NCBI RefSeq assembly: GCF_016127575.1
Contig: NZ_CP066019.1
Coordinates: 1,920,001-1,952,000, forward strand
Direction: 5' to 3'
Length of the DNA stretch: 32,000 nucleotides
Source: Cupriavidus necator
Lineage (GTDB): Bacteria > Pseudomonadota > Gammaproteobacteria > Burkholderiales > Burkholderiaceae
Made by a program: the position numbers and the translations under genes. The notes beneath the pieces are model-generated. The model was given only the letters and a program-made list of their open reading frames with translations. It made no database searches and had not been told where the DNA came from. Below, piece after piece: positions 585 through 9,227 of the stretch (position 1 is the first letter of the stretch; the number at the start of each line of letters is the position of its first letter).

Positions 585-1388
585 ATGCCAAGGCCCCAGA
601 TCCTGACCTATGTCGACGCCGGCGCTTCCGACTGGACCGCATGCCTGATGCGGACCATCGGGCACCAACTCCACGCCAGCACCTACGAGAACCGTGCGGT
701 GATGGCAGACGACATCCGGCACGACGCCACGCTGTTCGATGGGGCGGTGCTGTTTGTCTTGCCGGGAGGCGCCGACCTTCCCTACTGTGCAATGCTGAAC
801 GGTGCCCCGAACGCGCGCATCCGGCGTTTCGTCGAACAGGGCGGCGTCTACCTCGGGATTTGCGCGGGCGCTTACTACGCATGTCGGGAACTGGCGTTTC
901 ACGCCGGCACCAGGGGCGCAATCTGCGGCCCGCGCGAGCTGTGCTTTGTCGACGCCGTGGCAGTGGGCTCGCTGCCAGAACTGACTGACGGCATGCTGTA
1001 TGACGGCACGCCGCGTACCACGGCCGCGGTGAAACTGCGCACCACGGACAGCCTGACCGATGTCCCGATGTCGCTATACACCCACTACCATGGCGGCTGC
1101 CGCTTTGACTTCGGCGACGCTCCCGGCGCTGACACGCAGGTCCTGGCCGTCTATGCGGATATCGATGGCACGCCGCCGGCCATCGTCAGTTCACGGGTTG
1201 GCAAGGGCCGCGCGGTGCTCGCCGGCGTCCACCTTGAGATCTCCGAGCGGGAGTGCAAGGATGCGCTGCGCGGACACAGCGATATGCGTGAACACCTCCA
1301 TGTCTGCGACCGGCTGGCGGAGACCGGCGATACACGCCTGGCGGTGTTTCGCCGGTTGCTGGCGCACGCGGGGCTGGTGCTGAACTGA
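585..1388 (+). CDS. Stand-alone BPL_N-like protein (biotin-protein ligase N-terminal domain, class-I glutamine-amidotransferase-like fold)
   Basis: 267 aa. The motifs FVLPGGADLPY, GGVYLGICAGAYYA, PRELCF and AAVKLRT line up with the conserved blocks I recall from the N-terminal domain of yeast Bpl1 and holocarboxylase synthetase. No BirA catalytic domain is attached. The start is ATG and the RBS is weak. Confidence 0.7.
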   Translation: MPRPQILTYVDAGASDWTACLMRTIGHQLHASTYENRAVMADDIRHDATLFDGAVLFVLPGGADLPYCAMLNGAPNARIRRFVEQGGVYLGICAGAYYACRELAFHAGTRGAICGPRELCFVDAVAVGSLPELTDGMLYDGTPRTTAAVKLRTTDSLTDVPMSLYTHYHGGCRFDFGDAPGADTQVLAVYADIDGTPPAIVSSRVGKGRAVLAGVHLEISERECKDALRGHSDMREHLHVCDRLAETGDTRLAVFRRLLAHAGLVLN

Positions 1389-1427: not shown

Positions 1428-3158
1428 TCACACAATGTTGACCAGCCGCGTCCCCGCCGTCAGGAACGTGCCTGCGGCCGCCTGCCACGTTACGCGGCCG
1501 CCGCGATGAGCATGGACTTGCATCTCCATCTTCATGGCTTCCATCACGGCGATCAGATCGCCTTCCTTGACCTCGTCGCCAACTGCGACCTTCCAGGTCT
1601 GCACGGTGCCGGCGATCGGGGATGGCAGGTCGGCCGGGTCAGTAGCGGCGGCCTGGGCCGGCGCCGCGGCGCTGCCTTGCCCGGGCGCGTCGGCGAGGCC
1701 GCGCAGCAGCTGCGCCGGCAGCCCCAGCACCATGCGGCGGCCGTCGATCTCGATGGCGGTGCGCAACAGGCTGGCATCGTGCCGGGGCTCGGCACGGGTG
1801 GCCGCTGCCAGCGGTTCGGCGAAGTCGGACTCGATCCAGCGCGTGTGGACCCTGAAGCCATCCGCGCCGAGGAAATCTGCGTGGTCGATCACCGCACGGT
1901 GGAACGGCAGCACCGACGCCACACCCTCGATACGGAACTCGCGCAGCGCACGGCGTGCGCGCGCCAGCGCCTGTTCGCGCGTGGCACCGGTCACGATGAG
2001 CTTGGCCATCAGCGAGTCGAATGTGCCGGGGACCACCGAGCCCGACTGCACACCCGAGTCCACGCGCACCCCGGGGCCCGACGGAGCTTCGAAGGTCTGC
2101 ACCGGCCCGGGCGTGGGCAGGAAGCCGCGGCCCACGTCCTCGGCGTTGATGCGGAACTCGATTGAATGGCCCAGCGGCGCCGGGGTTTCGGTAATGGAGA
2201 GCGGCAAGCCATCCGCCACGCGCAATTGCTCGACCACCAGGTCCACGCCGGTGGTCTGCTCGGTCACGGGGTGCTCCACCTGCAGGCGGGTGTTGACCTC
2301 CAGGAAGGAGATCGCGCCGCTGGCGCTGAGCAGGAATTCCACGGTGCCGGCACTGGTGTAGCTGGCCGCCGCGCAGATGTCGCGGGCGGCGGCGTGGATA
2401 CGCGCGCGCTGCGCGTCGGTCAGGAACGGCGCGGGGGCTTCTTCGACCAGCTTCTGGTTGCGGCGCTGCAGCGAGCAGTCGCGCGTGCCCAGCACCACGA
2501 CATTGCCATGCTGGTCGGCCAGTACCTGCGCTTCGATATGGCGGGGCTTGTCGAGGAACTGCTCAACGAAGCATTCGCCGCGGCCAAAGGCAGTGACAGC
2601 CTCGCGCACGGCGGAGGCGTACAACTCCTCCACCTCATCCATGCGCCATGCGATCTTCATGCCGCGGCCGCCGCCGCCGAAGGCTGCCTTGATGATGATC
2701 GGCAGGCCGTACTGCTCGGCAAAGGCCAGTACCTCACTGGCATCCACGACCGGGTCGGGCGTGCCGGCGACCAGCGGGGCGCCAACCTGCAAGGCGATCT
2801 TGCGCGCTTCCACCTTGTCGCCCAGCCGCGCAATCGTGGCGGGAGACGGGCCAATCCAGACCAGGCCGGCATCGATCACGGCCTTGGCAAAGGCTTCACT
2901 TTCCGACAGGAAGCCGTAGCCTGGATGCACGGCATCTGCCCCGCTGCGCCGGGCGATATCGAGCAGCTTGGGAATGTTCAGGTAGGTGTCGGCCGGACGG
3001 TCGCCATCCAGGCCGTAGGCCTCGTCGGCCAGCCGCGCGTGCAGCGCGTCGATATCAGCATTGGCATACACGGCCACCGACCCGACTCCGTAGTCGGCAC
3101 AGGCGCGGATGATGCGGACGGCAATCTCGCCACGGTTGGCAATCAGGACTTTCTTCAT
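1428..3158 (-). CDS. Biotin carboxylase fused to a C-terminal biotin carboxyl carrier (BCCP) domain
   Basis: 576 aa. The N-terminus [20 protein letters not shown] and the ATP-grasp region are typical of AccC-type biotin carboxylases. An Ala/Pro-rich linker is followed by the biotinyl domain ending ...[13 protein letters not shown]. The AMKM lysine codon is at 1530-1532. Confidence 0.93.
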
Positions 3159-3185
3159 CGCAAATCTCGGTTGGGGCTTGTGCGC

Positions 3186-4829
3186 TCAGGCGGCAGACGA
3201 TCGCTGCGCCGACAGTTGCAGTTCTGACGGTTGAAGTTCTTCGAAGGCGCCGAGCGGGTTGAAGCGCAGCCAGGCGCCAACCGGAATCTGTCCGGCGCGG
3301 TCCAGGTGGTAAGGCGCCACGGCCCCGATCACGGGGTAGCCGCCGGTCAGCGGGTGGTCGGCCAGGAACAGCACGGGTTGGCCGCTTGGCGGCACCTGCA
3401 ACGCACCCAGGGCGGTGCCCTCGCTGGGCAGCTCGCCGGTGATGGCGCGCTCCAGCGGCACCTCGCCGGCCAGGCGCAGGCCCACGCGGTTGGATTGCGG
3501 GGTGACTTGCCAGCGCTGCGCAGCAAGGCGCGCCACGGACTCCGCAGTGAACCAGTCGGTGCGGGGACCGAGCACCACATCCAGCACGACGTCCTGCTCC
3601 ACCGTGGGCAGATCGGCGGCAGGCAACCCGGGGGTGCCCACGACGGCGCCGGCCGGTGCGGGCAGCAGGTCCAGCACATCGCCCACGGCCAGTGGCGCGG
3701 GACCGACCTTGGCCAGCGAGTCAGTCGCACAACTGCCCAGGACCGGCGTGACGGCAAACCCGCCGCGTGCTGCCACATAGCTGCGGGCGCCGGCAAGAGG
3801 CTGACCGATGCTCAGCGTGTCGCCATCGGCCAGCGCCACGGCCTGGTGGTTCGGGACGCTCCATTGGCGACCATCGGCAGTGCGCACCGTCAGCGCCGCA
3901 TCGGCGCCAGTGACAGCCAGCACGGTTTCACCCACGCTCTGCAGTTGCAGGCCGCCGCCCACGGTCTCGAGCGCCGCGCCGTCGCTGCGGTTGCCGACCA
4001 GGCGGTTGGCCATCTTGAGGGCGGCCTGGTCCATCGCACCCGAGGCCGAGACGCCCTGCCCCGCCTGGCCGTGCCGGCCCAGGTCCTGGAACACGGTCTG
4101 CAGCCCGGTGGCCCTCACCTTCAGCGCCGCGGCAGCAGCCGCCTTGTCCGTCGGCAACGGCTGGCGCGCCGGGGCGCCGGCGGCGATGGCGCTGCCCGCA
4201 TCGAGCACGCCATCGAGCGTGGCGATGTCGATGAAGCGCACGCGATAGCCGGGCTGCAGCAGCGCAGGCTGTTCGCGATTCAGGTCCCACATGGCCACGG
4301 GGGTAACCCCGATGATCTGCCAGCCGCCCGGGCTGGCCTGCGGGTACACGCCGCTGAAGGTGCCAGCCAGGCCCACGGCGCCGGCGGGAATACGCGTGCG
4401 CGGCGTACTGCGGCGCGGCACGTCGAAGCTGGGATGGCCGCCGCTGAGATAGGCAAAGCCTGGCGCAAAGCCGGTAAAGGCAACGGTGTATTCGCTGCCG
4501 GTGTGGCGGCGCACCACTTCCCTGGGCGTGATGCCAAGCAGCTGGGCCACCTCGGCCAGGTCCTCGCCGTCATAGCGCACCGGAATCTCGACCAGGATGT
4601 TGCTGCGCTCGACGCGCTGCGACAGGTCGCGCGCGGCGATGGCCGATACCAGCGCGGCGGCGCTGATGGCCGATGGGCGGAAGTGAACGAGGATGGTGCG
4701 CGCGGCGGGCACCAGCTCCGCCACGCCGTGCACGGGATCGCGCTGCAGCGAGGCCAGCAGGGCCAGGGTCTGGTCCAGGTCGGCCAGTTCCACCAGCAGT
4801 GCATTCGAAGTGACGGGCAGAAAACGCAA
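3186..4829 (-). CDS. Fused KipI/PxpB-KipA/PxpC protein (carboxyltransferase CT_C_D + CT_A_B domains, the former 'allophanate hydrolase subunit 1+2' family)
   Basis: 547 aa. The N-terminal ~205 aa (MRFLPVTSNALLVEL...YRVRFIDI) are KipI-like. After an Ala-rich linker, LKVRATGLQTVFQDLGRHG...GGYPVIG is KipA-like. TTG start at 4829, with GGAG 6 nt upstream. The gene lies 27 nt downstream of the DUF1445 gene and 27 nt upstream of the BC-BCCP gene. Confidence 0.88.
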   Translation of the reverse strand: MRFLPVTSNALLVELADLDQTLALLASLQRDPVHGVAELVPAARTILVHFRPSAISAAALVSAIAARDLSQRVERSNILVEIPVRYDGEDLAEVAQLLGITPREVVRRHTGSEYTVAFTGFAPGFAYLSGGHPSFDVPRRSTPRTRIPAGAVGLAGTFSGVYPQASPGGWQIIGVTPVAMWDLNREQPALLQPGYRVRFIDIATLDGVLDAGSAIAAGAPARQPLPTDKAAAAAALKVRATGLQTVFQDLGRHGQAGQGVSASGAMDQAALKMANRLVGNRSDGAALETVGGGLQLQSVGETVLAVTGADAALTVRTADGRQWSVPNHQAVALADGDTLSIGQPLAGARSYVAARGGFAVTPVLGSCATDSLAKVGPAPLAVGDVLDLLPAPAGAVVGTPGLPAADLPTVEQDVVLDVVLGPRTDWFTAESVARLAAQRWQVTPQSNRVGLRLAGEVPLERAITGELPSEGTALGALQVPPSGQPVLFLADHPLTGGYPVIGAVAPYHLDRAGQIPVGAWLRFNPLGAFEELQPSELQLSAQRSSAA

Positions 4830-4856
4830 AACGAGCTCCGCAATGACCCGGAGGTC

Positions 4857-5669
4857 CTAGACGTGATACGTGCTGTCTGGCACGTCGGTAATGAACATGT
4901 GGCCCGGCGCATGCGTCACGGCGAACGGCACGCCTGACGCCATCACGGCCGCCTGGGGCGTGACGCCGCAAGCCCAGAACACCGGGATCTCGCCCGGCTC
5001 GATACGCACGGCGTCACCAAAGTCAGGCCTGGCGAGGTCGGCAATGCCCAGCGCGGCCGGATCGCCGACATGGACGGGCGAGCCGTGCACCGACGGGAAG
5101 CGTCCGCTGATGGAAACCGCATCGGCAACCCGATGCGCAGGGATGGGCCGCATGGACACGACCATCTCGCCATGCAGGCGGCCAGCCGGGCGACACTGGC
5201 GGTTGGTGCGGTACATCGGCACGTTGGAACCGTCGGCGATATGCCGCACCTCGATGCCTGCCTCTTGCAGCGGCGTCTCGAAGGTGAAGCTGCAGCCGAT
5301 CAGGAAGGTGACCAGGTCCGGGTGCTCAGTCCACAGGGGCGTGGCATCCGCCACCTCCTCCGCCAGCTTGCCGTCGCGCCACACGCGATACAGCGGGATA
5401 TCGGTGCGGATATCGGCCCCTTGCGCCAGCACGGTCTGCTGTGCACCCGCTTCGATCACGTCGAGCACGGGACAGGCCTTGGGGTTGCGTTGCGCGTACA
5501 GCAGGAAGTCCCAGGCCCAGTCGCGCGGCAACGCGATCATGTTGGCTTGCGTCATCCCCGGTGCAATGCCGGCGGTAGGCTGTACCGTGCCGGCACGGTA
5601 GCTTGCGCGCGCTGCGCGCGCGGCGTTCACGGCGGCGATGCGGGTGCGTTCCAGTGCGGAATCTTGCAT
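4857..5669 (-). CDS. DUF1445 / UPF0317 'putative hydro-lyase' (D-glutamate cyclase-like family)
   Basis: 270 aa from the ATG at 5669 ([28 protein letters not shown]...). GGAG lies ~9 nt upstream. The longer listed ORF (to 5816) would overlap the MFS gene and looks like an artefactual extension. Family recognised from conserved blocks ([29 protein letters not shown]). Confidence 0.8.
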
Positions 5670-5697
5670 GCGTGTTGCTCCAGTGTCTTGGATCAGA

Positions 5698-6951
5698 TCA
5701 ATGCGCGGCCTCGGCCCCGGCTTCGGCGAGCAATTCGCGCCCTTGCGTTTCCGGCAACAGCAGGCAGGCGATAACGACCAGCCCATAGGCGCCGGCGGCG
5801 AGATAGCCGATGGCAACCCCCAGCGACATCGATGCGCTCATATGCCCGATCATGGCCGGGAATATGGAACCGACCGCACGGCCAAAGTTGTAGCAGAAGC
5901 CCTGGCCGGAGCCGCGGATATGGCTCGGATACAGCTCCGTCAGGTAGGCCCCCATCCCCGAGAAGATCCCGGACAGGAAGAAACCCAGGGGGAAACCCAG
6001 CACCAGCATCGCGGCGTCGGTGATCGGCAACTGCGTATAGCAGATCACGAGGAAGGCCGCGCTCACCGCAAACAGCATGAAGCAACGCCGGCGCCCCAGG
6101 CGGTCGGACAGCCAGGCGCTGGTCAGGTAGCCGGCGAAGGACCCGGCGATCAGCACCATCAGGTAGCCGCTGGTGTTGAGCACGGAGAGATTGCGTTCCA
6201 TCTTGAGGTAGGTGGGCAGCCAGGTCGTCACCGAATAGTAGGCACCTTGCATGCCGGTCGCCAGCAGGCTTGCCAGCACCGTCACGCGCAGCACGCCGGG
6301 CTTGAAGATCAGCATGAAGTTATTGCTTTGCCCGGTGCGGGCCAGCTTGGCCCTGGTTTCCTGATACACCTCGGGCTCGGAGATATTGCGGCGGATATAC
6401 AGGATAAAGACCGCCGGCAGCACGCCGGCCCAGAACAGCACGCGCCATGCGTATTGCTGCTCGAACACGGCATAGACCGCCCAGAATGCAATCGCCGACA
6501 GGCCCCAGCCGATGGCCCAGCTGCTTTGCACCAGTCCGACCGCCTTGCCACGGTGGCGGGCCCGGATCATCTCGGCGATCAGCAGGGAACCGACTGACCA
6601 TTCGCCGCCAAAGCCCAGGCCTTGCAGCATGCGGGTCAGGAACAGTTGCTCGGGGGACTGGGTGAAGCCGCTCAGGAACGTGAAGAAACTGAACCAGAGC
6701 ACGGTCAGCTGCAGGATCCGCACGCGACCATATTTGTCGGCCAGGATGCCGGCCAGCCAGCCGCCGATGGCCGAGCTGATGAGCGCGCCCGTCGCGATGT
6801 AGCCAGCCTCGGCCTTGGTCATGCCCCACACCAGGATGAAGGTGGGGATCATGAAGGTGTAGATCATGTAGTCGAAGGCATCGACCCCATAGCCGACGAA
6901 GGCGGCAAAGAGCGTCTTGCGCTCCGCCTGATTTGTTTCTTTAAGCCACAT
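5698..6951 (-). CDS. MFS transporter (metabolite:H+ symporter-like)
   Basis: 417 aa from the ATG at 6951; the listed ORF begins at an upstream TTG. There are multiple hydrophobic helices and the MFS signature [13 protein letters not shown] lies between TM2 and TM3. It is the first gene of the minus-strand operon. Confidence 0.88.
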
Positions 6952-7126
6952 GGTTGCGCTCACTATGGATAAGGACAAAGCGTGGACAAGGCTCGTCGCG
7001 ATGTCTTCACGACGAAGTTCCGGTAGCGAGCAAGACCACTAAGACAGCGGCCCCGCACCCCAGCCGCTGTTTAGCAAAACACATGCCATGTTCATCTATC
7101 TGCACGTATGACTCAACCACCGTGAC

Positions 7127-7143
7127 ATATTGTTGAACAATAT
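7127..7143. promoter_or_regulatory. Perfect 8-1-8 palindrome ATATTGTT-G-AACAATAT; candidate GntR/FadR-type operator
   Basis: Read directly from the sequence. It contains the GT-N-AC core typical of GntR-family operators. It lies in the divergent region between the MFS operon and the gntR gene. Confidence 0.55.
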
Positions 7144-7214
7144 TGGCTGAGGTTCGATTCTCGTATACACCTAAGTCACGTCTGCAGGGCAGACTTCGCA
7201 CCAATCTTGTGCCT

Positions 7215-7226
7215 ATTGTTCAACAA
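7215..7226. promoter_or_regulatory. Second, shorter copy of the operator core (ATTGTT-C-AACAA)
   Basis: Same core as the palindrome at 7127-7143. Located 61 nt upstream of the gntR ATG. Confidence 0.45.
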
Positions 7227-7286
7227 AGTGAGATAACATCGCCGCACGGGGCATGCCTGAACCTGTCGCCCCTGACGCAAGCCAAC

Positions 7287-7955
7287 ATGACATCCAGTAC
7301 TGACGTAAGAAACCTGGCCGAGCGGGTCACGGAGCAGATTCGCCAGCGCATCGTGCATGGCGAATTCGCGCCCGGGCAGCGCTTGTCGGAAGCCGCGCTT
7401 AGCGAGAGCCTGCAGATCTCGCGCAACACCTTGCGCGAGACCTTTCGCGTGCTGACCAAGGAAGGCCTGCTCAAGCACGAACCCAACCGCGGGGTATCCG
7501 TGGCAATTCCCAGCATTGCGGCCATCATCGACATCTACCGCGTGCGCCGCATGATCGAGTGCCAGGCCATCGCCCAGGCCTACCCCAGCCATCCAGCCAG
7601 GAAGCACCTGCGCGAAGCGGTGGAAATGGGACTGCGCTGCCGCGACAGCGGCGACTGGCAAGGCGCGGGTACCGCCAATATGGAGTTCCATATGGCGATC
7701 GTGGAACTGGCCGACAGCGAGCGGCTGAACGTGATGTTCGCCCACCTGCTGGCCGAGCTGCGCCTGGCTTTCGGCATGCTGCAGGATCCCGAATTCCTGC
7801 ATGGCCCATATGTCGAGCTGAACCAGCACATCCTGCAGTTGTTCGAGGCGGGCAAGCTCGCAGAGTGTGCCGCAGCCCTCAACGACTACCTGGTGCAGTC
7901 CGAGCGCATCGTGCTGTCGGTTTGCGCCCGGCACCCGATTTTCAAGGGGCGTTGA
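7287..7955 (+). CDS. GntR-family transcriptional regulator, FadR subfamily (FCD C-terminal domain)
   Basis: 222 aa from the ATG at 7287 (MTSSTDVRNLAERVTEQIRQRIVHGEFAPGQRLSEAALSESLQISRNTLRETFRVLTKEGLL). The winged-HTH is followed by an all-helical C-terminal domain. The listed ORF start at 7143 is an extension into the intergenic region. Confidence 0.88.
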   Translation: MTSSTDVRNLAERVTEQIRQRIVHGEFAPGQRLSEAALSESLQISRNTLRETFRVLTKEGLLKHEPNRGVSVAIPSIAAIIDIYRVRRMIECQAIAQAYPSHPARKHLREAVEMGLRCRDSGDWQGAGTANMEFHMAIVELADSERLNVMFAHLLAELRLAFGMLQDPEFLHGPYVELNQHILQLFEAGKLAECAAALNDYLVQSERIVLSVCARHPIFKGR

Positions 7956-8063: not shown

Positions 8064-8963
8064 TCACTTCACGGCAAGCGTAAACGGCAGCAGCAGCGCA
8101 TTCACAAGCAGCAAGCCATAGACGACCACCGCCGCCGCCGGGATGGCGAAACGCGTCCGATCCTGTGCGCGCGCGGCACGGCGCGTCCACAGGAACCCCG
8201 CACCCATCACGACCAGTCCTGAAAGCAGGCTCTCCACGGCAAGGGCTGCCGGATGGGACTTGTCCGGGCGGCTGTTCTTGTTCTCGGCAACGGGAGGCGC
8301 TGTGGCTTGCCAGACAGGCAGCGTTTCAACAGCCGGAGCCGTCGGCCGTGTTGGTTCGACGGGTTCCGGTCCAGCCGCCTCGGCAAGCGGCTCTGCCGGC
8401 GGCGGCTCTTCTTGCACGCGCTGCGTCGGCGCAGGGATCTGCGTTGAGGTCTGCGAGCCCTGCGCGGAAGACACCGCAGGCGGCGGTGCCGCCTCCTGGC
8501 TGGCGGGTGGCGACACCGCCGTTGCTGCTTGATTCGCGGAGTCGGACCGGCCCGGTGCGATTCGCATCGAATCCCGCTCCCGCCAGAATTTCGCGAACAT
8601 GCTTTCCAGGCAGCGCACCGAGCCGCACGCATCGCGCCGGCCGCGCCACGCCGCGATGTCCGAGTCCAGGATCCTGCCCTTGCGCAGCATCCTCTGCTGC
8701 TCGGCGTAAATGCGCTCGTAGCGCTCTGACAGCCTGGGGGAATCGCAGATCAGATGCCGCGGGCGCGCCTGCGGACCGGCCTCGTCCGTCGCAAGGCTGC
8801 ATCTCACCCCGGAGCCATCCGGATTGTTGCAGCGTACGGGGGATTCGCGCGCAATTGGCTTGCAGACGATGTCAGAGGCCCACGCGCCGCTTGCGGCAGT
8901 AAGGCCCGCTGCTACACCCACGGAGACAATGGTGGCCAGGCGCCCTGTGATCCTCTTCATCAT
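8064..8963 (-). CDS. Hypothetical exported, membrane-anchored protein (signal peptide, Cys-containing domain, Pro/Ala-rich linker, two C-terminal TM helices)
   Basis: 299 aa. Signal-like N-terminus MMKRITGRLATIVSVGVAAGLTAASGAWA. The Cys-bracketed segment ICDSPRLSERYERIYAEQQRML...AAWRGRRDACGSVRCLESMF is reminiscent of LprI/DUF1311-like periplasmic modules. A low-complexity P/A/E/Q region follows, and the hydrophobic C-terminus appears to hold 2 helices. Confidence 0.6.
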   Translation of the reverse strand: MMKRITGRLATIVSVGVAAGLTAASGAWASDIVCKPIARESPVRCNNPDGSGVRCSLATDEAGPQARPRHLICDSPRLSERYERIYAEQQRMLRKGRILDSDIAAWRGRRDACGSVRCLESMFAKFWRERDSMRIAPGRSDSANQAATAVSPPASQEAAPPPAVSSAQGSQTSTQIPAPTQRVQEEPPPAEPLAEAAGPEPVEPTRPTAPAVETLPVWQATAPPVAENKNSRPDKSHPAALAVESLLSGLVVMGAGFLWTRRAARAQDRTRFAIPAAAVVVYGLLLVNALLLPFTLAVK

Positions 8964-9227
8964 GATGCCCCATCAAAGCGGCCCAAGGCTTTCAAGCTAG
9001 TCGATAGTTGCCGGGTATTCCAGGCACGCAATGCGGGGCGCGCGCGGTAAGCCACCTTGCCCGGCACCGACAGGTCCGGATGCGTCGCGCGATGAACAAT
9101 GCATTGCGAAGCCGCAGCAACTTCTCACGCCGCGAGATTTCATGGCATTCTCGATACCCTCCGACACAGCCTCGCCTTCGAAAATTTCCCGAGCGGAATC
9201 ATGCACATCAAAGCGAAAGAGACTCTC

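Follow-up and report, generated by a model that had tools for sequence, protein, structure and literature searches.

A probable 5-oxoproline-type operon with its own biotin carboxylase, and without pxpA, in Cupriavidus necator H16

Genes and protein domains of the locus

The DNA analysed here is a stretch of 32,000 nucleotides from Cupriavidus necator (the window; contig NZ_CP066019.1, positions 1,920,001 to 1,952,000), which carries four closely spaced minus-strand genes and a divergent regulator gene. An identical fused protein is encoded on chromosome 2 of C. necator H16 (AM260480.1), and exact-sequence look-ups identify the genes as H16_B1757 to B1761. They encode an MFS transporter, a DUF1445 protein, a fusion of PxpB-like and PxpC-like (KipI-KipA) domains, and a biotin carboxylase (BC) fused to a biotin carboxyl carrier protein (BCCP) domain (Table 1). 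The locus is probably a 5-oxoproline-type operon of a BC-coupled Pxp kind from which pxpA has been lost. It is a trimmed member of a widespread and known operon family and not a new enzyme design. An initial annotation, made from the sequence alone, had placed the four open reading frames (ORFs) at exactly the positions found here, with spacers of 27-28 nt; recomputed from the coordinates, the spacers are 28, 27 and 27 nt. Profile searches with Pfam and NCBIfam upheld its domain assignments for the four operon proteins. The DNA of the locus has a GC content of 65-70%. Consensus scans for sigma-70 promoters and terminators gave no match in the spacer or at the 3' end of the operon.

Table 1. 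Features of the H16 locus, in positions of the window
Feature	Position	Strand	Remarks
H16_B1757, biotin carboxylase fused to a BCCP domain	1428-3158	-	576 aa, 61.1 kDa
H16_B1758, PxpB-PxpC (KipI-KipA) fusion, carboxyltransferase-like component	3186-4829	-	547 aa, 56.5 kDa, TTG start
H16_B1759, DUF1445 / UPF0317 'putative hydro-lyase' (YcsI/MumU family)	4857-5669	-	270 aa
Deletion scar, the 28-nt MFS-DUF1445 spacer	5670-5697	.	relatives have pxpA (~750 nt) there
H16_B1760, MFS transporter, presumed substrate importer	5698-6951	-	417 aa, MFS_1
Operator 1, ATATTGTTGAACAATAT, PxpR-type 17-bp palindrome	7127-7143	.	palindrome scan
Operator 2, CTATTGTTCAACAAAGT, PxpR-type, less perfect	7213-7229	.	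~66 nt upstream of regulator start
H16_B1761, GntR/FCD (FadR-subfamily) regulator, putative PxpR-like repressor	7287-7955	+	222 aa

The fused protein H16_B1758 contains the Pfam domains CT_C_D at residues 1-191 and CT_A_B at residues 259-524. The first part is PxpB-like, with 220.8 bits for PF02682 and 148.1 for TIGR00370 (cut-off 145.55). The second part is PxpC-like, with 274.6 bits for PF02626 and 230.2 for TIGR00724, exactly at the cut-off of 230.2; the PxpC equivalog NF045499 scores 169.9 bits, far below its cut-off of 500. The protein is labelled '5-oxoprolinase subunit PxpB' by NCBI, and its start site is kept in relatives as TTG, GTG or ATG. Relatives of solved structure are TTHA0988 and MSMEG_0435/0436 (together E 1e-57 to 1e-59), YbgJ/K and urea carboxylase (1e-34). 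The split, urea-carboxylase-like layout described in the initial annotation holds, with BC and BCCP on one chain and a separate chain with C_D before A_B. This carboxyltransferase (CT) component most likely arose by fusion of pxpB and pxpC and not by fission of a urea carboxylase, as had also been proposed, because the domain order follows the pxpB-pxpC gene order and the KipI-KipA relatives outscore urea carboxylase. TTHA0988 of Thermus thermophilus (PDB 3OEP), among the best solved relatives, is the same KipI-then-KipA fusion. MSMEG_0435-0436 (3MML, 9YX5), likewise among the best solved relatives, differ in that they have no dedicated BC-BCCP and borrow AccA3. Neither TTHA0988 nor MSMEG_0435-0436 has a defined function.

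The partner protein H16_B1757 contains the domains Biotin_carb_N, CPSase_L_D2, Biotin_carb_C and Biotin_lipoyl. Its AMKM biotinylation motif is intact, as first noted from the sequence: EAMKME is present with AMKM from residue 541, and K543 is the predicted biotinyl-lysine. The BC motifs GGGGRG (at residue 161) and EVNTR (at 287) are intact as well. The protein stays under every NCBIfam equivalog cut-off for acetyl-CoA carboxylase, pyruvate carboxylase and urea carboxylase. The DUF1445 protein H16_B1759 matches PF07286 with 231 bits and NF003969 with 417.8 bits (cut-off 324). It is very near to the structures 2PIF (E 9e-150) and 3DB9 (5e-140), neither with an assigned function; a single-sequence AlphaFold model of DUF1445 reached a pLDDT of 33, too low to use. 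The transporter H16_B1760 matches MFS_1 and Sugar_tr, and the nearest NCBIfam subfamilies remain under their cut-offs.

A conserved operon family and its operators

A scan of one genome per species recovered 80 loci with orthologues of the fusion protein (56-96% identity) in beta-, gamma- and alphaproteobacteria. Neighbouring genes, called with a self-trained codon-usage gene caller, were clustered and checked against Pfam, and all counts were then made by tblastn with a panel of verified proteins. Gene-presence counts refer to the 72 loci out of 80 with complete flanks, and some counts to 83 fetched loci. The gene pxpA lies just upstream in 65/72 loci. The initial annotation had suggested surveying gene neighbourhoods for co-occurrence with, or exclusion of, pxpA, and the outcome is co-occurrence. 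A gene for pyroglutamyl peptidase (Pcp) occurs together with DUF969/DUF979 in 30/72 loci. The presence of pyroglutamyl peptidase and PxpA in these operons ties the family to 5-oxoproline.

The operons come in two flavours. One has the order gntR< DUF969 DUF979 pcp pxpA pxpBC BC-BCCP and is found in Comamonas, Variovorax, Acidovorax, Photorhabdus and Labrys. The other has the order gntR< (MFS, NRAMP or TRAP) pxpA DUF1445 pxpBC BC-BCCP and is found in most Cupriavidus (C. necator A5-1 and EM36 among them), Paracidovorax, rhizobia and Pseudomonas. The slot of the MFS gene in the H16 operon is occupied by NRAMP, TRAP or DUF969/DUF979 in other operons. The ancestral layout in Cupriavidus was gntR(pxpR)< MFS> pxpA> DUF1445> pxpBC-fusion> BC-BCCP>.

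The BC-BCCP gene always accompanies the fusion. All 72 loci have it, and in about 79 of 80 species it is the gene immediately downstream of PxpBC; in 70/79 loci the PxpBC stop and the BC-BCCP start are -4 to +48 nt apart. By analogy with MSMEG_0435-0436, which bind BCCP domains of the mycobacterial LCC complex, and with KipI/KipA, which control KinA, such a complex might be regulatory or biotin-sequestering and not an enzyme. KipI was originally reported to inhibit a kinase. Cryogenic electron microscopy (cryo-EM) of the KipA/KipI homologue further shows that MSMEG_0435 holds BCCP-bound biotin (PMC13012033). For the H16 locus, a sequestering complex is a very unlikely explanation. A dedicated BC-BCCP with intact motifs is co-encoded in essentially every orthologous locus, and the combination of transporter, hydrolase and metabolite-sensing repressor is the signature of a catabolic pathway.

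The regulator gene H16_B1761, with GntR and FCD domains, is divergent from the operon as initially described, with its start corrected from 7143 to 7287 in agreement with public gene calls. Both palindromes that had been noted in the spacer were confirmed (Table 1), and the core ATTGTTNAACAA has no further occurrence within the 32 kb (chance expectation 0.01). Among the fetched loci, the regulator gene is divergent from the operon in 72/83, and the palindrome ATTGTTSAACAAT is found in the regulator-operon spacer of 69/72 loci. The sequence TTGTTNAACAA falls in the gntR-operon spacers in 88 of its 92 occurrences in fetched loci with a divergent GntR, and these spacer sites occur in either operon flavour and in each of the three proteobacterial classes. 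Most loci of the Cupriavidus clade have a second operator in the same relative place as in H16, about +60 from the regulator start. Metagenome loci in which NRAMP-DUF1445 and pxpA-pxpBC-BC/BCCP form separate units carry the operator before both.

The initial annotation had left the substrate of the system undefined. The operators and the sister operons with pyroglutamyl peptidase are at odds with this. In Corynebacterium glutamicum, pxpTABC is repressed by PxpR, a GntR-type protein transcribed divergently from it. The PxpR operator is the 17-bp inverted repeat AGATTGTTCAACAATCT, validated by mutation, and the ligand of PxpR is 5-oxo-L-proline (Kd 726 nM), with no binding of Glu, Gln, Pro or Asp (PMC13274462). 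The operator conserved across the present family equals this PxpR site. Operator 1 of H16 and the PxpR site share ATTGTT-N-AACAAT half-sites, and the divergent spacer of H16 contains two sites similar to AGATTGTTCAACAATCT. Because of the operator identity with C. glutamicum PxpR and the gene context, H16_B1761 is predicted to act like PxpR, as a repressor responding to 5-oxoproline.

Loss of pxpA and the place of DUF1445

As the initial annotation had stated, no LamB/YcsF (PxpA) gene lies in the 32-kb window: tblastn with verified PxpA and Pfam scans of the other large ORFs gave no match. No second copy of pxpA was found within the 10-kb flanks of any fetched locus. A search with the PxpA of C. 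necator A5-1 covered the closest 120 orthologues, among which an H16 paralogue would not appear. Cupriavidus sp. UYPR2.512, which is closest to H16 and shares 96% identity in the fusion protein, retains a relic of pxpA. At ~9080-9133 of its locus (L004) lies a 54-nt mini-ORF, MQIHLLGRDGVKIRAFA followed by a stop, which joins the first 5 pxpA codons to the last ~9. An alignment including C. necator A5-1, L011, shows that a further 95 nt, flanked by TGATC, are gone in H16 compared to UYPR2.512.

The gene is absent from only a subset of Cupriavidus, with three types of junction in its place. The first is that of H16 and UYPR2.512. A second, clean and distinct, is common to C. lacunae and strain TMH.W2, and a third, with a decayed pxpA 3' end, is common to C. 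yeoncheonensis, C. numazuensis and C. pinatubonensis. The relic and the three different junctions show that the H16 state is a deletion of pxpA from the ancestral operon, and that there were at least three separate losses in Cupriavidus. The C-terminal tail of the MFS protein (5698-5760) is short in H16 and UYPR2.512, ending in ...AEAGAEAAH compared to ...GETETGTEGPADAATSRTVA in pxpA+ strains; the shortening is explained by the same rearrangement that removed pxpA. Other parts of the operon have also been lost within the genus. The C. gilardii clade (L013, L014, L016, L018, L021) has MFS-pxpA-pxpBC-BC/BCCP, with DUF1445 lost and a spacer of 31-43 nt instead. C. laharis (L017) has a large deletion between gntR and pxpBC, which covers the MFS gene, pxpA and most of DUF1445; a 3' remnant of DUF1445 is kept, and the PxpBC and BC-BCCP genes are full length.

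Loss of pxpA could have inactivated the pathway in H16, with the remaining genes now becoming pseudogenes. The Cupriavidus locus is prone to deletion, as the three types of pxpA deletion, the DUF1445 loss in C. gilardii and the C. laharis deletion attest. The recent comparison of H16 with UYPR2.512 also gives higher dN/dS, at 0.32 for PxpBC and 0.25 for DUF1445, but such raised values at a dS of ~0.05 are a usual short-timescale effect. In pairs of pxpA-less species at a dS of 0.16-0.47, dN/dS is ~0.01-0.18 for the MFS, DUF1445, PxpBC and BC-BCCP genes, within the range seen in comparisons with pxpA+ strains. These values indicate that the remaining genes, and thus the trimmed H16 operon, are still under purifying selection. 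The four ORFs are intact and full length, and the operators and regulator are conserved. Ongoing decay of the operon is therefore unlikely.

The initial annotation had read the locus as a design with DUF1445 in place of PxpA. The conservation of pxpA across the orthologous loci, the presence of both genes in 23/29 DUF1445-containing loci and the deletion in H16 do not support such a design. The DUF1445 proteins are unusually well conserved: between operons of alpha-, beta- and gammaproteobacteria they keep 75-98% identity, and the adjoining PxpBC fusions only 56-96%. A divergent DUF1445 copy of 52% identity occupies another position in loci L051 and L072. An additional metagenome scan based on a DUF1445 alignment yielded 80 loci, and counts were made on the 22 that extend 3.5 kb or more to either side. 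PxpB/PxpC, fused or split, are encoded within 7.5 kb of DUF1445 in 18/22 loci, and the other 4/22 have no pxp genes. BC-BCCP is found in 9 of the 22. PxpA is also present in 17/18 of the loci with DUF1445 and PxpBC, and DUF1445 therefore normally accompanies PxpA and does not replace it. DUF1445 is a regular accessory of pxp clusters and not the usual substitute for PxpA. The single exception, L109, has DUF1445-PxpB-PxpC without PxpA within 7 kb.

This exception counts in favor of the reading of the initial annotation, in which DUF1445 takes the role of PxpA in a distinct biotin-dependent carboxylase or ring-opening enzyme. The substrate would then be another imported amide, lactam or cyclic amino-acid derivative and not 5-oxo-L-proline, with 5-oxo-D-proline or D-glutamate as a candidate. 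Absence of pxpA, which goes back to at least three losses, is enriched in operons with DUF1445 (6/29, compared to 1/43 of the operons without it; Fisher p=0.015, uncorrected for phylogeny), and the genes that remain are under purifying selection. DUF1445 is also half of the mammalian D-glutamate cyclase. Furthermore, DUF1445 never occurs in this operon family together with Pcp and DUF969/DUF979, the genes for L-pyroglutamyl peptides (0/29 vs 35/43). The mutually exclusive flavours nevertheless have their core enzyme genes, regulator and operator in common. PxpA is kept in most loci with DUF1445, the C. gilardii clade shows the opposite state with DUF1445 lost and PxpA kept, and a pxpA unlinked to the operon could exist in H16. 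We regard a replacement of PxpA by DUF1445 as rather doubtful and favor the 5-oxoproline-type operon that has lost pxpA.

As an accessory member, DUF1445 may handle the D-enantiomer or serve as a second ring-opening component. The initial annotation had pointed to D-glutamate cyclase as the mammalian homologue of DUF1445, which is correct in part. The mammalian enzyme (DGLUCY / 9030617O03Rik) contains DUF1445 (PF07286) and interconverts glutamate and 5-oxoproline. However, its DUF1445 is fused to DUF4392 (PF14336), and activity was shown for the whole protein with the catalytic domain left unassigned (PMC5339696). H16 has DUF1445 alone, and no gene with PF14336 was found in the H16 window or the 80 genome loci. 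A separate PF14336 gene (GLUCM-like_C, formerly DUF4392) adjoins DUF1445 in the metagenome loci L136, L154, L162 and L163, and in the latter three it also adjoins pxp genes. A soil clade (metagenome loci L109, L115, L133, L142, L144 and similar) has, in this order, a D-2-hydroxyacid dehydrogenase, DUF1445, PxpB, PxpC, a class-III aminotransferase and PxpA. This cluster may represent a different pathway around the same core.

Candidate chemistry, known systems and neighbouring genes

We suggest the following sequence of events for the H16 operon. Judging by the operator match to C. glutamicum PxpR, 5-oxoproline would release the GntR/FCD repressor from the two ATTGTTSAACAAT operators, and the MFS protein would import the substrate. 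Following established BC/BCCP chemistry and given the intact motifs, the BC domain of H16_B1757 would use ATP and bicarbonate to form carboxybiotin on K543 of its own BCCP. The PxpBC fusion might then carboxylate 5-oxoproline at its lactam nitrogen, as the CT of urea carboxylase does with urea. A precedent for the link to biotin is the homologous MSMEG_0435, in which BCCP-bound biotin lies 'positioned to participate in a carboxylation reaction' (PMC13012033). N-carboxylation would activate the ring and couple the use of ATP to an otherwise unfavourable opening. A hydrolytic partner would open the activated lactam; this is presumably PxpA in most species, and either DUF1445 or a PxpA encoded elsewhere in H16. 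The N-carboxy-glutamate would finally lose CO2 to yield glutamate. Our confidence in the carboxylation chemistry itself is clearly lower than in the overall identification of the operon.

Several points weigh against this reading. PxpA is not encoded with PxpB and PxpC in the H16 window. Canonical PxpABC was reportedly reconstituted by Niehaus in 2017 from three recombinant proteins without BC or BCCP; if so, carboxybiotin is not obviously required for 5-oxoprolinase chemistry. The 18O work of Meister on 5-oxoprolinases is said to have indicated a phosphorylated and not a carboxylated intermediate. A literature search brought up no biochemical work on the BC-BCCP-coupled type or on this gene combination. 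The effector proposed for H16_B1761 is predicted from operator identity and gene context. Finally, in Acinetobacter baumannii the mutant of mumC (BC-BCCP) does not grow on urea as sole nitrogen source, and the mutant of mumH (PxpBC) does (PMC5050338). Our model does not explain this difference.

A broader proposal would be that Pxp-type prokaryotic 5-oxoprolinases in general act as a 'lactam amidolyase' driven by carboxybiotin-dependent N-carboxylation. The present family would then encode the otherwise hidden BC-BCCP partner, and stand-alone PxpBC would borrow a housekeeping BCCP, as MSMEG_0435-0436 do with AccA3. DUF1445 would be a second hydrolytic or cyclase partner independent of PxpA, maybe specific for 5-oxo-D-proline/D-glutamate and maybe sufficient in pxpA-less Cupriavidus. 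We put this forward tentatively, as a possibility well short of a favored explanation. An early enzyme preparation could be relevant here. As quoted in PMC8453981, the two-component 5-oxoprolinase of Pseudomonas putida studied by Meister had a component A of 64 + 51 kDa and a component B of 82 kDa. The proteins considered here have similar sizes, with BC-BCCP at 61.1 kDa, PxpBC at 56.5 kDa and, in relatives, PxpA at 26.8 kDa (three of which make ~80 kDa). The P. putida enzyme could be this system, which we note as a lead only.

Among the known systems closest to the H16 operon are the PxpABC/PxpR systems, namely pxpA-ycsG-ycsI-pxpB-pxpC of Bacillus subtilis, ybgJKL of Escherichia coli and pxpR-pxpTABC of C. 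glutamicum. Shared features are the PxpB-like and PxpC-like domains, the divergent GntR-type regulator, the ATTGTT-N-AACAAT half-sites within a 17-bp palindrome and a transporter as the first gene. The B. subtilis operon also includes DUF1445 (ycsI) and NRAMP (ycsG), and pxpA, often with pyroglutamyl peptidase, is present in operons orthologous to that of H16. In contrast, the H16 type has a fused PxpB-PxpC and a co-encoded BC-BCCP, and the H16 copy is without pxpA. An operon of Agrobacterium tumefaciens was counted as a pxpABC cluster by Niehaus et al., as quoted in PMC10448178, and locus L081 is of the type of this operon. What is new in H16 is a pxpA-deleted, MFS-type variant of an already known kind of operon.

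The same gene set has been studied in A. baumannii as mumTLUHC, which encodes NRAMP, LamB, DUF1445, fused 'allophanate hydrolase' subunits 1/2 and a COG4770 carboxylase (PMC5050338, PMC2848557). The initial annotation knew of no defined reaction for this combination; this stands as far as biochemistry is concerned, yet the genes themselves were not without a history. H16 shares with mum the DUF1445, fused PxpBC and BC-BCCP genes in the same order. It differs by an MFS gene for NRAMP, by the lack of LamB and by a GntR/PxpR-type regulator compared to the LysR-type MumR. Intermediate layouts link the two: the exact mum gene order is found in the rhizobial and Pseudomonas orthologues L074, L075 and L080 to L083 (full mum order recurs within L074 to L083), and C. 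necator A5-1 combines MFS and LamB. Judging from the gene orders, the mum operon represents the NRAMP flavour of the same BC-coupled Pxp family. The authors assigned MumC as urea carboxylase and MumH as allophanate hydrolase (PMC5050338), and gave the LamB and DUF1445 genes no role. The urea carboxylase assignment rests on annotation and on a phenotype of the mumC mutant that is absent from the mumH mutant. The differing urea phenotypes are hard to reconcile with MumH as the only CT-like partner.

The mum studies raise the question of whether the H16 genes form a split urea carboxylase/urea amidolyase, in which BC-BCCP and the KipIA fusion carboxylate urea to allophanate. CT_A_B and CT_C_D are indeed the domains of the urea carboxylase CT, and the mumC mutant is also sensitive to 700 mM urea (PMC5050338). 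Urea carboxylase and urea amidolyase (K. lactis 3VA7, 5I8I; O. sagaranensis), as well as guanidine carboxylase, resemble the H16 proteins in BC, BCCP and the cyclophilin-like A_B and C_D of the CT. They also share the logic of ATP-driven amide N-carboxylation followed by hydrolysis. However, these enzymes are single chains in the order BC, A_B, C_D, BCCP, whereas H16 has two chains with C_D before A_B, and the scores for TIGR02712, 494.8 and 161.5 bits, fall well under its cut-off of 1303.85. No amidase-type allophanate hydrolase gene was found in the window by Pfam scans of large ORFs, and none is conserved across the 80 neighbourhoods. A preparation of MSMEG_0435-0436/LCC had no urea carboxylase activity, and key residues are missing (PMC13012033). 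Growth on urea persists in the mumH mutant, which has lost the sole CT-like component (PMC5050338), and the context of the operon with PxpA, pyroglutamyl peptidase and a PxpR-type operator is one of 5-oxoproline and not urea. A split urea carboxylase is thus quite improbable. The names 'urea carboxylase' and 'allophanate hydrolase' given to such genes, including those of the A. baumannii mum virulence operon, are probably wrong.

The lactam-catabolism genes lamA and lamB of Aspergillus nidulans offer a further comparison, as lamB is the founding member of LamB/YcsF (PxpA). LamA (UniProt P38095) is presumably a urea-carboxylase-like biotin protein. If this is right, lamA/lamB would be a fused eukaryotic counterpart of BC-BCCP, PxpBC and PxpA. 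They differ from the H16 genes in being eukaryotic, with a BC-CT-BCCP single chain, 2-pyrrolidinone as substrate and no DUF1445.

A private BC/BCCP beside PxpBC under a 5-oxoproline-type regulator points to carboxybiotin-activated lactam hydrolysis, which is testable. This bears on how PxpB and PxpC couple ATP hydrolysis to ring opening, and on why they have a fold of the urea carboxylase type. H16 is genetically tractable and naturally misses pxpA from the operon, and thus provides a system to ask whether DUF1445 can replace PxpA. The main value of the locus lies in this tractability, both for the biotin dependence of this branch of 5-oxoprolinases and for the role of DUF1445. If the simple reading is true, the locus is an ordinary and slightly eroded operon for the utilisation of pyroglutamate.

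Two genes flank the system. H16_B1756 (585-1388, plus strand) encodes 267 aa with BPL_N as its only domain and is convergent on the BC-BCCP gene. BPL_N is the N-terminal GATase-like domain of eukaryotic biotin-protein ligase, and some records name the protein 'biotin apo-protein ligase', though it is without the catalytic domain of the ligase. We considered H16_B1756 as a member of the system and rejected it; because it adjoins the operon in 6/83 loci only, it is probably not part of it. Its placement beside a biotin enzyme is curious all the same. On the other side, an ORF of 299 aa (8064-8963, minus strand) has no Pfam or NCBIfam match. Its N-terminus resembles a signal peptide (MMKRITGRLATIVSVGVAAGLTAASGAWAS), and the ORF is kept in the closest Cupriavidus loci only.

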